This document shows positions 184 through 7,007 of a DNA stretch of 7,007 nt, one piece after another. The translations under genes and the position numbers were made by a program. This DNA comes from a virus (taxonomy: Duplodnaviria > Heunggongvirae > Uroviricota > Caudoviricetes). The notes under the pieces are model-generated. The model was not told the origin of the DNA. It saw only the letters and a list, made by a program, of their open reading frames with translations, and searched no databases. Each line of letters opens with the position of its first letter. Position 1 is the stretch's first letter. The stretch lies in IMG/VR virus record IMGVR_UViG_2529292874_000015, one strand, 5' to 3'.

Positions 184-408
184 TACCGGAATGGCCCCCA
201 CAGCATCATCCACCATCGCCTGCAGAACCGGACGCACCTCATCCACCGTCACATGCTTCTGTAATACCACAGACAGGGAAGCCAGTTTCTCTTCAAACGC
301 TTGTGCCTGCGAGGCCATCTTCCCCTCAAATGTGCGCTGTAAATCCGCCAGCACTGCGGAAAATTCTTCACCCAGCGCACGGATAATGGACAGTTCACGT
401 TCATTCAT
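1..408 (-). CDS. Partial ORF (start at 408, 3' end beyond the left edge): tandem-repeat protein of unknown function, translationally coupled to the portal gene
   Basis: Minus-strand frame is open for all 136 codons from ATG 408..406 to position 1 (my own translation: MNERELSIIRALGEEFSAVLADLQRTFEGKMASQAQAFEEKLASLSVVLQKHVTVDEVRPVLQAMVDDAVGAIPVPRDGRDYDPDVLQQAVNDAVANIPVPADGKSITPDDVRPMLEQMVKEAVSHIPVPRDGRDY...). ATG overlaps the TGA (407..405) of the upstream portal frame as ATGA; purine-rich AGGGGGA about 10 nt upstream. Absent from the supplied ORF track, probably because it has no stop codon inside the window. Confidence 0.6.
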   Translation of the reverse strand, partial: MNERELSIIRALGEEFSAVLADLQRTFEGKMASQAQAFEEKLASLSVVLQKHVTVDEVRPVLQAMVDDAVGAIPVPRDGRDYDPDVLQQAVNDAVANIPVPADGKSITPDDVRPMLEQMVKEAVSHIPVPRDGRDY

Positions 409-845
409 TTTTTCAGAATCCCCCTGAACATCGCCTTCACCGCATCATGCTCTGTTTCAGTGATTGCCTTATTACCGTCAGATGCGCCGTCAGGCGGTTG
501 CGCTAAGGCCGTTTTCCCGGTCGACGCGAACGGATCTTCACGGGCATCACGACGGGACAGCGCCTCCAGACTGTAGTTCTGCTGCTGAAGATACAGTGCA
601 TCACCGCCGGCAAGGGGCGGCAGGTTCTCACGTTTACGGGCCTCATTGGGCGTGAGAAGCGTATTTTTCACCGACTCACCCAGCGTTTTCATGCGCCGTT
701 CGCTGTCCATTCTCAGCAGCGTGGTGACGTCAAACTCCGTGCTCTCGTTTTCCCCCGTTTCCAGCGCCTCATCCAGTAACAGCTCAATGGACTCAATCAG
801 CGTCTGCAGACACTGGGAATAATACTGCTGCTCCAGCGCCTCCAC
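405..845 (-). CDS. Portal protein, C-terminal segment (separate frame from the main portal ORF; frameshifted gene or assembly indel)
   Basis: 146-codon ORF (GTG at 845..843); the frame is actually open from 914. Sequence (N)VEALEQQYYSQCLQTLIESIELLLDEAL... continues the portal family C-terminal region that follows the conserved FRVP.Y.IG block found in the 797..1936 frame; acidic low-complexity tail; stop is ATGA-coupled to the next gene. Confidence 0.6.
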   Translation of the reverse strand: MEALEQQYYSQCLQTLIESIELLLDEALETGENESTEFDVTTLLRMDSERRMKTLGESVKNTLLTPNEARKRENLPPLAGGDALYLQQQNYSLEALSRRDAREDPFASTGKTALAQPPDGASDGNKAITETEHDAVKAMFRGILKK

Positions 846-1936
846 GTTGTCACTGGAAGGCGGTGGCCAACGCCAATCTTGTAGGCCGGGACACGGAACA
901 CCGAACAGACAATTTCAGCGGTCATCTTCAGTTGTTCCACCGTCTGCGCATCCACCGGTGAAAACGTCGTGGGGTTGTATTTTGCCCCGTTGCTCAGAAT
1001 GGCCGTTTTCCCCGCATTTTCGCCGGTATACCCGCTGTCCCAGTTGCTCTTCAGTTTTTTCGCATTTTCTTCCGTAATACTGCCGGGGATCTCAATCACC
1101 CCGGACGGCCTGCCGCCATTTCTGAAAAAAGACGTCGAATTTTCCTGAATATGATGCCCCTGCGTGGCCGCCAGCCCGGCGGCATACACCGGCGGCAGCC
1201 CCACAAGCGGATGAAAAAAACAGTTAAACCGGTCGTGGATCACTTCCCTGGCAGGCACCGTCACCGCCTCCGTGATCCCGCAGTTCCGGTCCGGTGTAAT
1301 GCGATAGAACACCTCGCCGTCATCCGCCACCAGAGGTTCAACCCGGCTCCAGTCCAGAATACGCAGTTCTTTGATCTGCCCCCGGGAGTTACGGATTTTC
1401 AGCACCACCGTATTGCCGTGACGCAGTTTGGAATTCAGCCACAGTTCAAAAAACTGGATGCGATTCTGCTGTGCATTAGGACGACGACAGAGACGGGCAG
1501 TATCTCCCTGCCGCTTTTCCCGGCGTATTCCCTGTACATCAGTCTGCATCAGGCGAAGCCGCATTTTGGCAATATCCTGGGATATCAGCGAAATGCATGA
1601 AAACACCGCGTGAAAGGACAAAACGGTTTCCGGATCGGCTTTCACACCCTGCTGCCAGGCACCGGCAAAAGGCTCAGCCACCGCCTGAAACAGGGACCGC
1701 CAGCCCACTTCTCTTACGTCACGTCCTGATTTCTGGTTTTTTCGGGTTCGCCGCAAAAAGGTTCCACATTCGCCATGCTCCGCATCATGTTTCTTTTTCT
1801 GACCCGCCGGACGTCGCGCTGTGATGTACTCCGCCTTCCTCAGGCGAACCAGCACCTCCGCACACGGCTGTGCGACATCACGGATATCCCCGGCCCGGGC
1901 ATCATGCGTGCCCTGCAGATATCGGATCTTTGCCAT
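797..1936 (-). CDS. Phage portal protein, HK97 family (main body; native C-terminus continues in frame of 405..845)
   Basis: 379-codon ORF, ATG 1936..1934. Core blocks LSFHAVFSCISLISQDIAKMRL, FFRNGGRPSGVIEIPGSITEENAKKLKSNW and EQLKMTAEIVCSVFRVPAYKIGVG match the conserved portal (Phage_portal-type) motifs as I recall them. The last ~22 residues (HRLPVTTWRRWSSS...) look non-native and the first ~60 residues are compositionally atypical. Confidence 0.8.
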   Translation of the reverse strand: MAKIRYLQGTHDARAGDIRDVAQPCAEVLVRLRKAEYITARRPAGQKKKHDAEHGECGTFLRRTRKNQKSGRDVREVGWRSLFQAVAEPFAGAWQQGVKADPETVLSFHAVFSCISLISQDIAKMRLRLMQTDVQGIRREKRQGDTARLCRRPNAQQNRIQFFELWLNSKLRHGNTVVLKIRNSRGQIKELRILDWSRVEPLVADDGEVFYRITPDRNCGITEAVTVPAREVIHDRFNCFFHPLVGLPPVYAAGLAATQGHHIQENSTSFFRNGGRPSGVIEIPGSITEENAKKLKSNWDSGYTGENAGKTAILSNGAKYNPTTFSPVDAQTVEQLKMTAEIVCSVFRVPAYKIGVGHRLPVTTWRRWSSSIIPSVCRR

Positions 1937-1946
1937 AACCTGTTAC

Positions 1947-1964
1947 GGGAGGCGCACGCCTCCC
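1947..1964 (-). other. Perfect 18-nt GC-rich palindrome (RNA hairpin) between Shine-Dalgarno and portal start codon
   Basis: gggaggcgcacgcctccc (8-bp stem, 2-nt centre) lies between AAGGAGGA (1973..1966) and ATG (1936..1934); no U-tract follows. Confidence 0.4.
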
Positions 1965-1980
1965 GTCCTCCTTATCAGAC

Positions 1981-3663
1981 TCAGCCGCCGGACGCACTGC
2001 CGTAGTTCACTCCGGTGATCACCGCCACCGCCGCGGTACGGCGACGACGCCAGTTGATCCAGCGCTCCGCACGGATGGCCACACTGCCTGTCTGGAACAT
2101 GGAAACCAGCTCCACCGGCGACGGCGTGGTACTGTCGCCGCCCGGCTCAGACTGCATTTCCAGTGATGCCTCGCGGGACATATCCACTGCCACGCCGCCG
2201 TCATCCGCCAGATAAATATCCGGGGCATTCACCAGCACCAGCTGGTCACCCACGTACTGGGAGACAATCACCGGCAGCCCCTGGAAGGTCCCGCCCAGCA
2301 GGGTCATGTCCGGATATTCCTTCTGACCCAGCGCATTTTTACGCATGGACAGCGCCAGGGCATTCGTGCTGGACATCAGCCAGACCGCACCGGTGGGCTG
2401 CAGATTTGCCGTCACAAACTGGCCAAACGCGGCCTCGGCATCCGCATCCGGATTACCGCTTGACGCCGTGCCCTTCACATCATGGGTGATGGACGCCGGG
2501 GAGACATCCGCCACCGCCGCTTTTTTCGGGTCCACAAAGTCTGTGTCCAGACGCGCCACCACCGCTTCTGCCAGCGCATTACGGACCAGCGCATCAGCTG
2601 CCGGACTGGAAAAACGGATCAGCTCTTCCGTCAGTACCGCAATGGCCGACACCTTCGCATGACTGAAGGTGATGGATTCAAAATCAAACTTCGTCAGGGG
2701 TCTGGCCTTACCCTCCCCCACCCAGCCGGCAGCACCACCGGACACCTGGGCATGCACGCGGATATTGAACGGCACCTGACGAAGTGCAGGGATCCCGCCC
2801 TGACCAAATCGCCCGATAATGGTCTGCGGACGCAGGTAATCAATAAAGTCCTGCGCATATTCCTGGTATTCAGACAGGCTGCCTGCCCACTGCGGGTCCG
2901 TGGTGGTCCCTGCCCCCACCGCCGATTTCAGGACATGATGCAGACGGCTGTCATCCGGATACTGACGACGGGCCACTTCCAGGGCTTCAGAGCGGACACC
3001 TTTAGCCGCGGCCAGTGATTTGGCAAAGCGGGCGAAACCAATCCCCTTCTCCAGTTTCTGCTCAACACGGATCACCGGCGCTGAAGCCACCGTGGCCACA
3101 TTCCCGTTACCGGCCTGTTTCACCGGCTGTGCCGTGGCGGCCTTACTGGTTTCCAGTTCACGCAGACGCTTCAGGTGCGCATCCACCTGACGGATTTCCG
3201 CTGCGGTGTTGTCGTAATGCTCTTCCTCCTCCACATCCAGCGTGCGCCCTTCCTCTGCGGCTTTGGTCATGACCTCCTCAAGGGAGGCTGCCAGTGCTGC
3301 ACGCTTGTTTTCAAAACTTTTAATCTGTTCGCCAATATTCATTATGGTCTTTTCCTTATGAAAAACGGTTGTTGACTGTGCCGCAGCGCCGGCAGAAGAT
3401 GCGATTTTCACCACCGGTTTCCGGTTGCCGGACGCGGCAGAAAACGGGCGGTCGTAAGATTTAATGGTCCGGATGGTGCATTCCGCATTCGCGGGCACGG
3501 TGACGGCAGACACCTCCATCAGCTCCCAGCGCAGAAAATGCAGTCCGCCTCCGTCCAGAAAGGTGTATTCATGAGGACGGAAGCCCACGGACAGCCCCCT
3601 GACCAGCCCGGTCTTAATGGCCGCCCAGGCCTCATCCAGCCGGGCAGCCAGTTGCGATGGCAT
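1981..3663 (-). CDS. Prohead protease (C-terminal half) + scaffold-like delta region + HK97-fold major capsid protein in one reading frame
   Basis: 560-codon ORF. Residues 1-60 (…IKTGLVRGLSVGFRP…LMEVSAVTVPANAEC) resemble the Ser-motif half of HK97-type prohead proteases; residues ~108-200 are a charged coiled-coil-like region (MNIGEQIKSFENKRAALAASLEEVMTKAAEEGRTLDVEEEEH…RLRELE) typical of capsid delta/scaffold domains; the remainder is capsid-like (…ITFSHAKVSAIAVLTEELIRFSSPAADALVRNALAEAVVARLDTDFVDP… and C-terminal …VSMFQTGSVAIRAERW…). Internal AAGGA (3357..3353) + ATG (3342..3340) could also start a stand-alone capsid protein. Confidence 0.85.
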   Translation of the reverse strand: MPSQLAARLDEAWAAIKTGLVRGLSVGFRPHEYTFLDGGGLHFLRWELMEVSAVTVPANAECTIRTIKSYDRPFSAASGNRKPVVKIASSAGAAAQSTTVFHKEKTIMNIGEQIKSFENKRAALAASLEEVMTKAAEEGRTLDVEEEEHYDNTAAEIRQVDAHLKRLRELETSKAATAQPVKQAGNGNVATVASAPVIRVEQKLEKGIGFARFAKSLAAAKGVRSEALEVARRQYPDDSRLHHVLKSAVGAGTTTDPQWAGSLSEYQEYAQDFIDYLRPQTIIGRFGQGGIPALRQVPFNIRVHAQVSGGAAGWVGEGKARPLTKFDFESITFSHAKVSAIAVLTEELIRFSSPAADALVRNALAEAVVARLDTDFVDPKKAAVADVSPASITHDVKGTASSGNPDADAEAAFGQFVTANLQPTGAVWLMSSTNALALSMRKNALGQKEYPDMTLLGGTFQGLPVIVSQYVGDQLVLVNAPDIYLADDGGVAVDMSREASLEMQSEPGGDSTTPSPVELVSMFQTGSVAIRAERWINWRRRRTAAVAVITGVNYGSASGG

Positions 3664-3919
3664 ATCCGGCTACGGGCTTCACCAGTGTTGCCGTGATTTC
3701 CAGCCCTTCGCTGACCCGGCGCACCGTACACTGGCCCCACAGGGCGGGAATGGTCATGCTGCCAGAGAAACGGGATCGCACTGCCAAACTCCGCCCCTCC
3801 GGCTCCAGGATGTCACCATCCCGATCCGGAGAAGGCGTTGACGCAATCCCGGTGATCACCCGTTCATCCTCGCTGAAGGATTTCACCGTCAGCAGGGAAC
3901 AGGCCCGTTTAAGAGTCAC
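3632..3919 (-). CDS. Prohead protease, N-terminal segment (frame-disrupted relative to the downstream protease/capsid ORF)
   Basis: 95-codon ORF starting GTG 3919..3917 with AGGAGG 5 nt upstream; N-terminus …FSEDERVITGIASTPSPDRDGDILEPEG is protease-like, but the frame then lacks the catalytic His block, which is encoded in the adjacent frame (LWQHD at 3767..3753). See findings. Confidence 0.65.
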   Translation of the reverse strand: MTLKRACSLLTVKSFSEDERVITGIASTPSPDRDGDILEPEGRSLAVRSRFSGSMTIPALWGQCTVRRVSEGLEITATLVKPVAGYAIATGCPAG

Positions 3920-3931
3920 ATCAGCCTCCTG

Positions 3932-3957
3932 AAAATAAAAAAACCGCCGCAGCGGTT
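3932..3957 (-). terminator. Possible weak intrinsic terminator/attenuator between terL and the protease gene
   Basis: On the minus strand, 25 nt after the terL stop: AACCGC-UGCG-GCGGUU (6-bp stem, 3957..3942) followed by UUUUUAUUUU (3941..3932), then AGGAGG and the GTG start of the protease gene. Confidence 0.35.
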
Positions 3958-3982
3958 CATGATGGTTACAGGGTGAACAGGG

Positions 3983-5662
3983 TTATATGAAAAAAACCGC
4001 ATATTCTTTCTTTTTCGGCTCCGGATTCAGGGACATCAGGGATACCGCATTGAAGAGCGCCATCAGCGGGTCAATTTTCCCCCGTCCGCTGGCCTGTTTG
4101 GTAATAAGGATAGCGTTACCTTTAGGCTCCACCCGGGCATTGCCAACGCACCAGGCCATCAGTGGCTGACCACCATGCACCAGTACTCCCTCAGCCAGTT
4201 TGCGCTCGGTGGTTTTTATGGCCCCGCCCAGCTTCCAGCCCTGGCTTATCCCCACAACAATTCCGTCGGGGATCCCGGCTTCCGCCAGTGAATCCAGAAT
4301 CTGCCCCACACCTGACGGGTCAATACCGATATGCTCCAGTAACTCAGCCTCATGAATACGACGCACATACTCCGCCACTTCCGCCGTGTCATCCCCGACC
4401 CGACGGACAATCGTCATGTCTCCACAGGCCACAAAATCCTGAAAACGGGATGCCTCACTCTTCCGTCTGACCACCGCGGTTTCATGCGCCCAGGCATGGC
4501 CCCAGCCCAGCCATTCGCGGGTTTCCCTGTCACGGCCAATCACGTACATTCCCAGCAGATCATCCAGGCCCCCGCCGTCAATCCCCACCGTCACCACATC
4601 AGCGCGCTGCAGGATATCGTCCAGGCTGACGCGCCTGCCCTGCTGCTCCCAGAAATCCGCACCCGCCCAGCGGTCAGAACGCAGGGCAAGACCAATTTCC
4701 ACATTGGCATGTTTTGACATGAAGCCACGAAATGCTTCCTCACCAGCCTCCCGGGCTTTACGGTACTCCCGGTACAGAAAAGCCTCATCCACCGAATAAC
4801 CGAGATTCGGATTGACCATGGCGAGGTTTTCCATCAGCAGGTGAGCCCCGCTTTCCACCATTTCAGGAGGGTGTTCAAATATCACCGGCAGAAAGTGCGG
4901 ATCATGAATTTTGCCGTCACGGACATCCCGGGCGTACTGCAGTTTCTGTCTGAACACCCCGGCTGGCGGCTCATTCGACTGGGTGGTCGTATACACCACA
5001 AACCCTTCCGGGCGGGAGGCAAGGCCGCCTATGGCTTCACGTAACATGTCCTCCGCCTTGCACTGCTTGCCAAACAGCCACAACTCATCAATCAGCGTAC
5101 CCACGGACTTGATACCGGACACCGTATTCGGATCGGCTGCCACCACCTTCAGGGTGGTGTCCGTCACCCGGTGGGTGATGGTCCGGATATGTGTCTGTAC
5201 CTGGCAGAGGTCATCCAGATCATCGTCCCGTCGTACCATATCCCGGGCAGGGTTGAAGGCGTTAGCCGCCACCTCCACGGTCGGGGCCAGAATCGTGTAA
5301 CCCGCCGCCTGCCGCCAGTTCAGTAACAGTGCAGTCATCATGATCCCCGCGGCCAGCGTGGACTTCGAGTTTTTCTTGGGGATAAGGATAAACACTTCCT
5401 TGATATGGCGAACACCGGTCTGCGCATCGTAGGAGCCAAACAGGGCCGCCACCAGGTCAAACACCCACGGTGCACAGGACTCCCCGAATGTCGGGCTACC
5501 CGGTGCATCCACAATCCGCAGTTGTTTAAAAATCGCCAGGGCATGTGCAGCCTGTCCGGATAAATCGGAGCCGGAATAATCGACAGCCCCTTTTTCAGGC
5601 GCTCTGCCCAGTCCGGGCAGGCCGTGCTCCACACAGGTATCATCCGTTGCCCTCATTATCAT
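3983..5662 (-). CDS. terL: Terminase large subunit (Terminase_1-like)
   Basis: 559-codon ORF, ATG 5662..5660, overlaps the terS stop by 23 nt; Walker-A-like FILIPKKNSKSTLAAGI near the N-terminus; C-terminal nuclease-like half (…VTVGIDGGGLDDL…, …HIGIDPSGVGQ…); position directly after terS. Confidence 0.9.
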   Translation of the reverse strand: MIMRATDDTCVEHGLPGLGRAPEKGAVDYSGSDLSGQAAHALAIFKQLRIVDAPGSPTFGESCAPWVFDLVAALFGSYDAQTGVRHIKEVFILIPKKNSKSTLAAGIMMTALLLNWRQAAGYTILAPTVEVAANAFNPARDMVRRDDDLDDLCQVQTHIRTITHRVTDTTLKVVAADPNTVSGIKSVGTLIDELWLFGKQCKAEDMLREAIGGLASRPEGFVVYTTTQSNEPPAGVFRQKLQYARDVRDGKIHDPHFLPVIFEHPPEMVESGAHLLMENLAMVNPNLGYSVDEAFLYREYRKAREAGEEAFRGFMSKHANVEIGLALRSDRWAGADFWEQQGRRVSLDDILQRADVVTVGIDGGGLDDLLGMYVIGRDRETREWLGWGHAWAHETAVVRRKSEASRFQDFVACGDMTIVRRVGDDTAEVAEYVRRIHEAELLEHIGIDPSGVGQILDSLAEAGIPDGIVVGISQGWKLGGAIKTTERKLAEGVLVHGGQPLMAWCVGNARVEPKGNAILITKQASGRGKIDPLMALFNAVSLMSLNPEPKKKEYAVFFI

Positions 5663-6203
5663 TATTCACCACCAGGCGGGGTGGTGGTGGCACCGCAAAA
5701 CGGTTAGCCGCTTTTTTCGCCGCGTCACCTTTTGCCGATTTTTTACCGGCATCCCCTTTTTTGTGGTGCGTGAACTGCGCCAGCTTATAAGCCGCATCCA
5801 GCGCCAGCCTGGGGTCGGTATTAATGTTCTCCACCAGAAGACGCCCCATCGCTTTCACCGGATCGGGAAGACCGTCCTCCATATACTCAATACCAGGAGA
5901 TATCACCACGGGCGGTGGCATCTCCGGATTTGTTTCGTCCGGCTGTGGTATTGCAGCCGCCTCACGGCGACGGGGTTTATCCTCCTGCTCTGATTTTTTC
6001 TGCCGGTAAACAGGAACCTCATCCACCTCCACCGTCTCGCACTGTTTACGGGCTATAAACGCAAGCACCTCCGGATCTTTTGCCAGCTGCGAGCCTTTAA
6101 CCCTGGCGGTCTTCGCCGAATAACCGGCGGCAATGGCTGACGCTGTTTTGTTTTTCCCGGACATGAGCGCCAGCGCAAATTTTCGTTTTTGCGTTGTCAG
6201 CAC
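5640..6203 (-). CDS. terS: Terminase small subunit (helix-turn-helix N-terminus, P27/Terminase_2-like)
   Basis: 187-codon ORF, GTG start 6203..6201 preceded by GGAGGAGG; N-terminal LTTQKRKFALALMSGKNKTASAIAAGYSAKTARVKGSQL is the characteristic DNA-binding helix-turn-helix of small terminases; basic/Pro-rich C-terminal tail; immediately upstream of and overlapping terL. Confidence 0.8.
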   Translation of the reverse strand: MLTTQKRKFALALMSGKNKTASAIAAGYSAKTARVKGSQLAKDPEVLAFIARKQCETVEVDEVPVYRQKKSEQEDKPRRREAAAIPQPDETNPEMPPPVVISPGIEYMEDGLPDPVKAMGRLLVENINTDPRLALDAAYKLAQFTHHKKGDAGKKSAKGDAAKKAANRFAVPPPPRLVVNNDNEGNG

Positions 6204-6273
6204 AGCCTCCTCCCGGGTCCAGAACGCACTCAGCCGGGTATGGTTCAGCCCATTTTTCCCGGCGTCTCATGCC

Positions 6274-6401
6274 GCAAATGTTAACTGCTGCCTGGTTAAC
6301 ATTTGCTGAAAAAGCCAGTTAACATTTTTTCCGCACAACAAACTGAATAATAAAGATAAAAACCGCAAAAATGCCCGGACAGCCAGTTAACATGTTAACT
6401 G
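6274..6401. promoter_or_regulatory. Array of GTTAAC-centred palindromic repeats (candidate cosB-like terminase-binding or operator sites)
   Basis: Five GTTAAC hexamers at 6280, 6295, 6318, 6386 and 6394: a 12-bp inverted repeat with 9-bp spacer (GCAAATGTTAAC-N9-GTTAACATTTGC, 6274..6306), a half-site AGCCAGTTAACAT (6313..6325) and a perfect 18-bp palindrome CAGTTAACATGTTAACTG (6384..6401). I found no other GTTAAC in the window by eye. Confidence 0.5.
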
Positions 6402-6491
6402 CCCTGAAACGGGAATTTTTTCTCTGCGTGAGAGGGGGCGCGGTGTCCGGAGCGATCGTTTTTTTCGCCGGATGATCCCCCCCGAGTCTGG

Positions 6492-6857
6492 TCACAGTCC
6501 GATGATATCGTCTGCCCTGCCATGACCTCCGGACACCTCCGGCAGCGTCGGGTCCGGCATACCACCCGCCGCTTCACGAGCAGACTTCTGTCGATGGCAT
6601 TCGGTACAGAGCGTCCAGAGATTCGTCTCCTCATTACCACCACCGAACTGAAGTGCAATTCGGTGATCGAGTTCACTGTCACAGAGGTCAACCACGCGTC
6701 TACAGAGACAACAGTGTCCGGCATCCCTCCGCCAGATACGACGTTTGAGGGAAACCCGGGCACTGCCACTGACACGACGCTGTTCCCCCCTCAGGACATT
6801 TATCCGCCGGGTGTTCAGAGTTTTGATTCTGCCCGGTAACGTACGAAGCACAGCCAT
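6492..6857 (-). CDS. HNH endonuclease (phage packaging-associated)
   Basis: 121-codon ORF, ATG 6857..6855 with GAGGA 6 nt upstream; HNH/zinc-finger motif HCCLCRRVVDLCDSELDHRIALQFGGGNEETNLWTLCTECHRQK (C-x2-C … DH … N … C-x2-C-H); located immediately upstream of terS, as in cos-type HK97-like phages. Confidence 0.85.
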   Translation of the reverse strand: MAVLRTLPGRIKTLNTRRINVLRGEQRRVSGSARVSLKRRIWRRDAGHCCLCRRVVDLCDSELDHRIALQFGGGNEETNLWTLCTECHRQKSAREAAGGMPDPTLPEVSGGHGRADDIIGL

Positions 6858-6898
6858 GTAAAATCCTCGCCATATAGCTTGTCACCAGAGGAAAGAAA

Positions 6899-7007
6899 AT
6901 GTCATCGAAAAACCGGACCCGCAGAACCACAATCCGCAATATCCGTTTCCCCAATCACATGATTGAACAGATCAATATCGCCCTTGAACATAAAGGTTCC
7001 GGTAACT
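6899..7007 (+). CDS. Partial ORF (N-terminal 36 codons, continues beyond the right edge): small RHH-like DNA-binding protein, YlcI/DUF3950-like
   Basis: ATG 6899..6901 with AGAGG 7 nt upstream; MSSKNRTRRTTIRNIRFPNHMIEQINIALEHKGSGN; basic N-terminus, a beta-strand-like TIRNIRFP followed by helix-like MIEQINIAL (ribbon-helix-helix pattern); resembles small prophage proteins found next to terminase genes in enterobacterial lambdoid prophages (from memory, not searched). Confidence 0.5.
   Translation, partial: MSSKNRTRRTTIRNIRFPNHMIEQINIALEHKGSGN

Follow-up and report, generated by a model that had tools for sequence, protein, structure and literature searches.

Packaging of DNA into phage heads depends on a terminase, and here we describe the putative terminase-recognition region in a 7,007-nt stretch of DNA (the whole of which we call the window) from the Caudoviricetes record IMGVR_UViG_2529292874_000015, whose HNH-terS-terL head module has its source in a lambdoid E. 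coli prophage of the BP-4795 / Stx1a / Stx2c type. We consider it likely that the spacer between the HNH endonuclease gene and terS, the gene for the small terminase (TerS), is a cos (packaging) site in two parts, a cleavage core and an array of repeats that forms the address read by TerS. The 288-nt spacer appears bipartite in its sequence, with the core at 6414-6483 and the repeat array at 6274-6401. The array is supported as a candidate TerS-specific address because a satellite lacking TerS carries its sites intact, because all five sites change together with the TerS recognition helix, and because satellites with a TerS of their own replace the repeat. A preliminary description of this DNA had proposed here a candidate cos or terminase-recognition region with TerS sites resembling those of lambda cosB, and this comparative evidence, together with the invariance of the sites, supports that reading.

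The repeat array and the core of the HNH-terS spacer

The features of the spacer are listed below in the order in which the gene strand (the minus strand of the window) is read.
6477..6483, minus strand: G-run (G7 on the gene strand, C7 on the plus strand), left edge of the core; 6-9 G stand there in all relatives, in the satellites and in HK97
6414..6476, minus strand: conserved cos core, gene strand ATCATCCGGCGAAAAAAACGATCGCTCCGGACACCGCGCCCCCTCTCACGCAGAGAAAAAATT
6426..6443, unstranded: predicted cleavage (cosN-like) interval including CCGCGCCCCC (6434-6443)
6414..6423, minus strand: A-tract, AGAAAAAATT on the gene strand, near-invariant across all TerS types
6384..6401, unstranded: palindromic double half-site CAGTTAACATGTTAACTG (sites d and e), an exact palindrome
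6326..6370, unstranded: AT-rich spacer between the palindrome and the distal sites, 29% G+C against 57% for the window
6316..6325, plus strand: half-site c, CAGTTAACAT
6293..6302, plus strand: half-site b, TGGTTAACAT, right arm of the 12-nt inverted repeat 6274-6306
6278..6287, minus strand: half-site a, CAGTTAACAT on the gene strand, left arm of the inverted repeat
6204..6273, minus strand: terS leader including the Shine-Dalgarno sequence GGAGGAGG (6206-6213), read from the sequence

The hexamer GTTAAC occurs five times in the window (at 6280, 6295, 6318, 6386 and 6394), where 0.85 copies would be expected, and all five lie within 6280-6399, exactly as had been counted. Five copies anywhere in the window arose in 2 of 200 dinucleotide shuffles, and three or more copies inside 125 nt in none of 5000 mononucleotide shuffles, confirming the enrichment; the motif has no further copy elsewhere in the window. 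The remaining landmarks of the preliminary description also held up. The 12-nt inverted repeat with its 9-nt spacer (6274-6285 / 6295-6306) and the 18-bp palindrome at 6384-6401 are exact, the lone half-site at 6313-6325 is present, the flanking HNH and terS genes are those that had been named, the AT-rich tract divides the repeats, and the homopolymers T6 (6416-6421), G5 (6434-6438), T7 (6459-6465) and C7 (6477-6483) stand where they had been placed. The half-site consensus needed correction, however, since C(A/T)GTTAACAT fails for 6293-6302, which reads TGGTTAACAT; what stands is the shared 8-mer GTTAACAT / ATGTTAAC, and this is the invariant unit. The copies at 6313-6328 and 6381-6396 are 94% alike. 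The AT-rich spacer is itself partly conserved (TTTTT..CTTT..ATTCA..GTTG), and its length is kept to within 2 nt.

The half-sites are invariant and change in concert with TerS

The 80 close relatives in IMG/VR are 93-99% identical to the window and are too similar to tell sites from spacers. The comparison of GTTAAC lineages covered four of them, namely the window, L104 (TerS 77% identical), L119 (69%) and the satellite L114. The results showed that 38 of 38 half-site positions are invariant, versus 52 of 103 inter-site positions (50%; Fisher p = 1e-9) and 43 of 68 core positions (p = 2e-6). The preliminary description had looked to conservation in related elements, and the half-sites display it. 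The offsets of the sites from the A-tract (28, 36, ~104, ~127 and ~142) are kept to within 2 nt; in L119, which has an extra GTTAAC, the last site (site a) is shifted by +10 nt, i.e., by one helical turn. The terS leader (6204-6273) shows no conservation in the satellite or in L113/L116, is the least conserved part of the spacer and lies outside the portable signal.

The same architecture is found in L113, L116, L117 and L118 with every site of the TAAAC type (TATAAACATGTTTATA, ATGTTTATA, ATGTTTACA and GGTAAACAT), the palindrome, unchanged in the four GTTAAC lineages, having become TATAAACATGTTTATA. The TerS proteins of these four TAAAC lineages carry K-S-A-R-C, versus K-T-A-R-V in all GTTAAC lineages. 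Across 76 distinct sequences the repeat type follows TerS residues 31-35 with two exceptions, as set out below.
TerS K-T-A-R-V (…KGSQ/R): 5-6 GTTAAC; 71 distinct sequences, 2 of them with one extra or substituted TAAAC-type hexamer
TerS K-S-A-R-C: 5 TAAAC and no GTTAAC; 3 distinct sequences
TerS K-T-A-R-V-K-G-W: 2-6 GTTACAY, one also with a single GTTAAC; 2 distinct sequences (satellites)
TerS K-S-A-R-S, distant Enterobacterales: mixed GTAAAC-ATG-TTAAC; 13 with E at residue 30, plus variants

An AlphaFold2 model of TerS gave a predicted local distance difference test score (pLDDT) of 92-96 for the N-terminal 55 residues, with a helix-turn-helix formed by H2 (19-25) and H3 (33-41). The best Foldseek match was the DNA-binding domain of SF6 G1P (4zc3 / 2cmp; template modelling score 0.82/0.81, root-mean-square deviation 1.6 Å, 30% identity, probability 1.00), and the modelled N-terminus thus appears to be a helix-turn-helix of the G1P fold. 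The varying TerS residues 32, 35 and 38 would lie at the start of, or on, the predicted recognition helix H3. Terminase_2 is the sole Pfam family matched by TerS, the best structural matches are the SF6 G1P, PaP3 and NV1 small terminases, and the gpNu1 family is not among the matches; the window TerS is outside both the lambda and the HK97 TerS families. As candidate homologies, that of TerS to HK97 gp1 was rejected (BLASTP E = 1.2), as was that of the HNH protein to HK97 gp74 (no pairwise similarity). We infer that TerS is the protein that binds the array.

Satellites carry the core with or without the phage address

The TerS-less satellite (L114/L115) is a 9.7-kb island of E. coli CH427 (NZ_CM166357.1, ~639.9-649.6 kb) located between cspD/yljB and clpS, with genes for an integrase, a helix-turn-helix regulator, YlcI/YnfO, an Icd-like protein, DUF4222, a RepA helicase, a ClpP-protease/major-capsid fusion and a 94-aa open reading frame (ORF). 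The end of this island holds the G-run, the core and all five GTTAAC sites, while terS, terL, HNH and portal genes are absent. The homology between the window and L114 stops just past half-site a, and the array is followed by ~300 nt without annotation and then by clpS on the other strand. This satellite version of cos was found, at a query coverage of at least 80%, in 50 of 5426 complete E. coli genomes. The YlcI/YnfO gene of the island (L115, 14211-14516) encodes a distant member of that family.

Other satellites encode a TerS that is 46-53% identical to that of the window (KTARVKGW/Y), and they likewise have no terL, HNH or portal gene. L107-L109 and L395 (GCA_012987925.1) carry an integrase, DUF4222, an AAA_25 helicase, TerS and a capsid-like protein, and L110-L112 carry AlpA and TerS, L120 and L121 being of the same class. 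These TerS-encoding satellites keep the core, and their array consists of 1-7 copies of (A)AAAGTTACAC (GTTACAC) in both orientations; in L110 the repeats surround an AT-rich tract, mirroring the layout of the window. The C-terminal half of the satellite TerS is closer to the window lineage than other Enterobacterales TerS are, and it would suit an interaction with a TerL of the window type. The replication module of L395 resembles that of the TerS-less satellite.

The putative cleavage core is widely conserved and aligns with the HK97 cos

The core (6414-6483) is composed of the G-run, GGACACCGCGCCCCCTCTCACGCAGAGAAAAAATT and the A-tract. Over 69 nt it shares 88% identity with the core of a TerS-encoding E. 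coli satellite, and this homology ends right after the A-tract. Conservation of the core extends to 17 distant Enterobacterales loci, to Salmonella phage FSL SP-016 and to three kinds of E. coli satellite, and a GC-rich metagenomic phage, whose TerS is unrelated, retains the right half of the core, CTCTCACGCAGAGAAAAAATTCC; the array is specific to the lineage, whereas the core is kept far outside the E. coli lineage. Being invariant whatever the TerS type, the A-tract is probably not what determines TerS specificity and is more likely a structural element or one used by TerL/HNH.

The layout of the core aligns with the mapped cos of HK97, and the HNH-cos-terS arrangement fits the earlier comparison of its position with that in HK97-like phages. 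Joining the ends of the HK97 record gives G9-ATCAAATC...ATGACCGCCGCCAAA, then the cut, then GTTTGAATTTAACGCTAACCCGATTTTTTTAG...ATG; the HK97 cut lies 42 nt past the G9 run, terS starts at +50, and cos is downstream of the HNH gene. Cleavage there depends on the HNH protein gp74 and leaves a 10-nt 3′ overhang (PMC11331095, PMC9410871). When 42 nt are counted from the G-run of the window, the cut falls at 6434/6435, inside CCGCGCCCCC. By this analogy we infer both the exact position of the cut and the type of overhang, the cut itself probably being located at ~6426-6443, outside the GTTAAC array and in the homopolymer-rich part, to which the preliminary description had referred only briefly; in this respect its reading is refined.

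A survey of contig ends covered 64 complete IMG/VR contigs with the region, of which 45 ends map inside the window. The tightest cluster lies at 6426, 6429 and 6433, includes both polarities and stems from three different isolate assemblies; a fourth locus ends at 6428, where a true contig end was not confirmed (the loci with ends at 6426-6433 are L159, L242, L243 and L244). Three ends within 8 nt are expected anywhere in the window with p ~0.04, and inside the pre-specified 20-nt interval with p = 3e-4. The cluster gives a weak hint of the cut position and could stem from free ends of phage DNA present in the cultures that were sequenced. Among the 93-94 phage records that match, none starts or ends in the region, these records being prophage-derived or re-oriented; the phi330 record begins in terS, and the phi330 paper is silent on ends.

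A proposed mechanism of terminase recognition

In the mechanism that we propose, the core (G-run, GGACACCGCGCCCCCTCTCACGCAGAG and A-tract) would be the place where an HK97-type TerL together with the HNH protein makes a staggered cut, probably at ~6426-6443. The array would lie on the terS side of this cut, i.e., on the end packaged first, and would offer a palindromic pair, a 68-nt AT-rich bendable spacer and three further GTTAACAT half-sites. The outer helix-turn-helix domains of an oligomeric SF6-type TerS ring would bind the five half-sites, with the 68-nt AT-rich segment letting the DNA bend around the ring. Bound TerS would then anchor and wrap the DNA and place TerL/HNH on the core ~40-50 bp away; these would nick the core, and packaging would proceed towards terS. 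The wrapping of DNA around TerS is a presumed step, and it is debated whether small terminases have the DNA wrapped around them or contact it in their central channel (PMC11331095).

The palindrome coincides with the terS start in distant relatives

A scan that used an alignment of TerS found 17 loci, which belong to Atlantibacter, Enterobacter, Kluyvera, Erwinia, Phytobacter, Kosakonia, Serratia, Rouxiella, Pantoea, Citrobacter and Buttiauxella. These loci and phage FSL SP-016 have a conserved block of ~110 nt directly upstream of terS with the layout G6-9 ... (GTAAACAT) ... GGACACCGCGCCCCCTCTCACGCACAGAAAAAATTCCCC-TCTGGAGGG-TGTAAAC-ATG-TTA-ACA. In these distant relatives ATGTTAAC is the Met-Leu-Thr start of terS, and the position of the palindrome reads GTAAAC-ATG-TTAAC with ATG as the start codon. 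In the window lineage this ancestral start (6386-6393) has been severed from terS by ~182 extra nt (6204-6385); the insert brings three more copies of the motif, and terS now starts with GTG-CTG-ACA behind a new Shine-Dalgarno sequence. Codon 2 (Leu) is TTA, a rare codon, in all 12 of the distinct sequences with the palindrome over the start, and CTG where the array is detached. The codon invariance at terS codons 2-3 in the distant relatives is only suggestive, because some neighbouring codons are also invariant.

The GC-rich metagenomic phage mentioned above (L161; IMGVR_UViG_3300049988_000376, minus strand, ~2223) has the same G-run and CTCTCACGCAGAGAAAAAATTCC core and an unrelated TerS. 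Its repeat is GTTCGCA, present three times, once upstream of the core and as an inverted pair just before terS, and these positions are those of the GTAAACAT sites in Enterobacterales.

Alternative explanations and points against a bipartite cos site

The repeats could instead be operators for YlcI/YnfO (DUF3950, ribbon-helix-helix-like), for a late regulator or for a host nucleoid protein, and so control terS and the head genes. Short repeats in palindromic or inverted arrangement, with an AT-rich spacer, are a typical feature of operators, the array lies just upstream of the terS Shine-Dalgarno sequence, and a YlcI/YnfO gene is nearby in the phage and is also present in the TerS-less satellite. 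However, the YlcI N-terminus is identical at 35 of 36 positions between GTTAAC and TAAAC lineages, no DUF3950 gene was called beside HNH in the TAAAC-type L116/L117, and the array in the TerS-less satellite stands at the island end, with no annotated downstream gene to regulate. A host factor, in turn, cannot explain the concerted change from GTTAAC to TAAAC to GTTACAC within elements of the same host. The scan of the region returned one weak sigma-70-like match, though on the plus strand, and neither a sigma-70 promoter on the gene strand nor a terminator. We therefore regard an operator function as unlikely, and the operator for the divergent ribbon-helix-helix-like protein, which the preliminary description had offered as an alternative, is disfavoured by the lack of covariation between YlcI and the site types.

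Slightly less plausible still is a role at the level of RNA or translation, whereby the repeats would be remnants or duplicates of the ancestral terS initiation region AUGUUAAC and act as leader structures or decoy starts. That ATGTTAAC is the terS start in all distant relatives, with ~182 nt dividing the ancestral from the present GTG start, fits such an origin, and short ORFs begin at each ATGTTAAC on the gene strand. Such a role is at odds with the presence of sites in both orientations, with their retention in a satellite without terS, with their shift in concert with the TerS DNA-binding helix and with the poor conservation of the leader beside the real start (6204-6273); in addition, no Rfam family matches the region. 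Very improbable, finally, is that the array has no function and is a relic, left by tandem or inverted duplications at the 5′ end of terS and carried along with the head module. The 16-nt copies AGCCAGTTAACAT(T/G)TT at 6313-6328 and 6381-6396 suggest a duplication origin, and the close relatives, at 93-99% identity, are uninformative on this point. Against a relic stand the 100% conservation of the 8-mers versus 50% at flanking positions (p = 1e-9), the conserved spacing including the +10-nt helical-turn variant, the retention of the array in an independent satellite and the joint change of the five sites in another lineage.

Several observations weigh against our own reading of the spacer as a bipartite cos site. 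HK97, of the HNH-cos phages the one studied best, differs in having a single 15-bp TerS site that is recognised by an arginine clamp and DNA shape, by a TerS that is not homologous to that of the window (PMC11331095). The distant relatives have only the start-codon palindrome, with or without one upstream GTAAACAT; because they manage without the three distal sites, these sites are not universally required. The correlation between TerS and array may in part reflect shared descent, since the two are physically linked, the switch between GTTAAC and TAAAC may have been a single evolutionary event, and the independent lineages available for covariation are few. The cluster of contig ends is small (3-4 ends; the scan-wide p is ~0.04), its ends overlap by 5-8 nt, whereas trimmed 3′ overhangs would be expected to leave a gap, and it could be due to assembly breaks near the C-run. 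A metagenome scan for contigs ending at the cut returned 9 true matches, all spanning cos, the other rows being chance matches. The window's own prophage has frameshifts in its head genes. In the searchable literature no paper that contains the palindrome or the core sequence was found.

Comparison with known packaging systems

As in the lambda cos, the putative small-terminase sites are reiterated and of mixed orientation and would lie between the nicking site and the small-terminase gene, at the first-packaged end; a bendable segment parts the sites, and satellites such as P4 copy the helper cos. In lambda cosB, however, the sites (R3-I1-R2-R1) are bound by gpNu1, whereas the window TerS is of the SF6/SPP1-type Terminase_2 family. 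The window further differs in its HK97-type TerL, in the HNH gene beside cos and in the integration host factor consensus WATCAANNNNTTR, for which no match with at most 1 mismatch was found in 6204-6491. Lambda ends have 12-nt 5′ overhangs, whereas 3′ overhangs would be expected for the window.

The likeness to HK97 comprises the HNH-cos-terS-terL order, a related TerL and the layout itself, i.e., a G-run, ~42 nt, a GC-rich cut site (in the window a predicted one), an A/T tract ~20 nt further on and, in the ancestral arrangement, terS ~50 nt from the cut. A further reference for the HK97 cos is Kala et al. 2014, cited in PMC12315714. The A-tract of the window is positionally analogous to the A/T tract in the HK97 TerS site, and the five half-sites, unlike the HK97 site, are suited to a helix-turn-helix. 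HK97 TerS (gp1) binds +15 to +29, with the A/T tract inside its site (PMC11331095).

With SPP1 and SF6 the window has in common the TerS DNA-binding fold and short boxes spread over >100 bp of intrinsically bendable DNA. In SPP1, multiple pacL/pacR boxes flank pacC, and in the distant relatives of the window lineage sites also lie on both sides of the predicted cut. SPP1 differs in its headful packaging with a pac-type TerL, whereas the window TerL is of the cos type and has an HNH partner; the TerL clade argues for cos rather than headful packaging in the window. In function the array would correspond to lambda cosB and to the pac boxes of SPP1, and the cos as a whole would be lambda-like in function (cosB), HK97-type in context and core, and SPP1/SF6-like in its reader protein.

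Among Staphylococcus aureus pathogenicity islands (SaPIs) there are cos-type elements (SaPIbov5, with the helper cos and the capsid homologue Ccm) and pac-type elements with their own TerS (10.1101/2022.09.08.507074, PMC5052747). The E. coli satellites resemble them in that some copy the helper cos (L114/L115, with a protease-capsid fusion) and others bring their own TerS and recognition sequence (L107-L112, L395), and in that the helpers are HNH-dependent cos phages. They differ in that the E. coli elements that encode TerS keep the helper core and change the repeat array only; a split between core and array of this E. coli type is not reported in the two SaPI papers (10.1101/2022.09.08.507074, PMC5052747).

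A possible modular packaging code

Of added interest is that a single cleavage core appears to be common to phages and satellites, the differences between them being confined to TerS and the address; no description of a cos packaging signal of the window type was found in the searchable literature. We tentatively propose, with somewhat less confidence than we would need to call it probable, that E. coli HNH-cos phages and their satellites use a modular packaging code, in which a near-universal TerL/HNH core (G-run ... CTCTCACGCAGAGAAAAAATT) is combined with an interchangeable TerS address, the address being a short repeat that three or four residues in the recognition helix of TerS would read. 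The proposed pairs are as follows.
Address GTTAACAT: TerS K-T-A-R-V
Address TAAACAT: TerS K-S-A-R-C/S
Address GTTACAC: TerS K-T-A-R-V-K-G-W/Y
Address GTTCGCA: unrelated TerS, GC-rich phage

If this code holds, some satellites would copy the helper address without TerS, and others would bring a private TerS and address and use the TerL/HNH of the helper, which would make their packaging exclusive although they encode no nuclease. Definition of the core and the address would allow prediction of which terminase packages which prophage or satellite, and would explain how satellites ride on Shiga-toxin phages. The system would also be a compact natural example of a ring-shaped SF6-type TerS that reads several half-sites and hands the DNA to an HK97-type TerL/HNH, with a natural specificity switch (two or three residues versus one base pair) that is directly testable.

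Genes of the window and distribution of the module

The genes called in the window are given below.
6492..6857, minus strand: HNH endonuclease gene, 121 aa (PF01844, E = 2.9e-6), directly upstream of cos-terS-terL
5640..6203, minus strand: terS, 187 aa, GTG start, Pfam Terminase_2 (PF03592), proposed reader of the array
3983..5662, minus strand: terL, 559 aa, TerL_ATPase and TerL_nuclease domains (PF03354, PF20441)
3919-3632 / 3663-1981, minus strand: prohead-protease/major-capsid fusion gene, split
1936-797 / 845-405, minus strand: portal gene, split
6899-7007, plus strand: YlcI/YnfO (DUF3950) gene, divergent, beside the HNH-cos-terS module

HNH, terS and terL are adjacent and all on the minus strand, as in an HK97-type cos module, and HK97 TerL (6Z6D) is the sole PDB sequence match to the window TerL (E = 8.7e-10), which places the latter in the HK97 clade. 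The stretch 6100-7007 is 95-98% identical to many records, including Stx1a-, Stx2a- and Stx2c-converting phages, BP-4795, 2851, 1717 and YYZ-2008. Prophages matching this stretch were found in 1287 of the 5426 complete E. coli genomes, a single genome holding up to 8 copies, and the cos region in 1288 of 5426 (~24%), with up to 7 copies each.

The gene order on the minus strand (405-6857) is HNH, terS, terL, protease-capsid fusion and portal, with the portal gene after the capsid gene; HK97, unlike the window, has the order terL, portal, protease, capsid. Frameshifts private to the window split the portal and protease-capsid fusion genes. Compared with 46 of 46 relatives, the portal gene lacks 1 nt near 861-863, and compared with 70 of 70 relatives, the fusion gene has additional nucleotides near 3670-3672 and 3733-3735; either the window prophage is defective in head assembly or the sequence assembly contains indel errors. 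In PPompW prophages (e.g., LC567822.1) the IS110-family element ISEc20 is inserted at the G-run (~6481, in the C7 tract), between the stop codon of HNH and the cos core, and parts HNH from cos.

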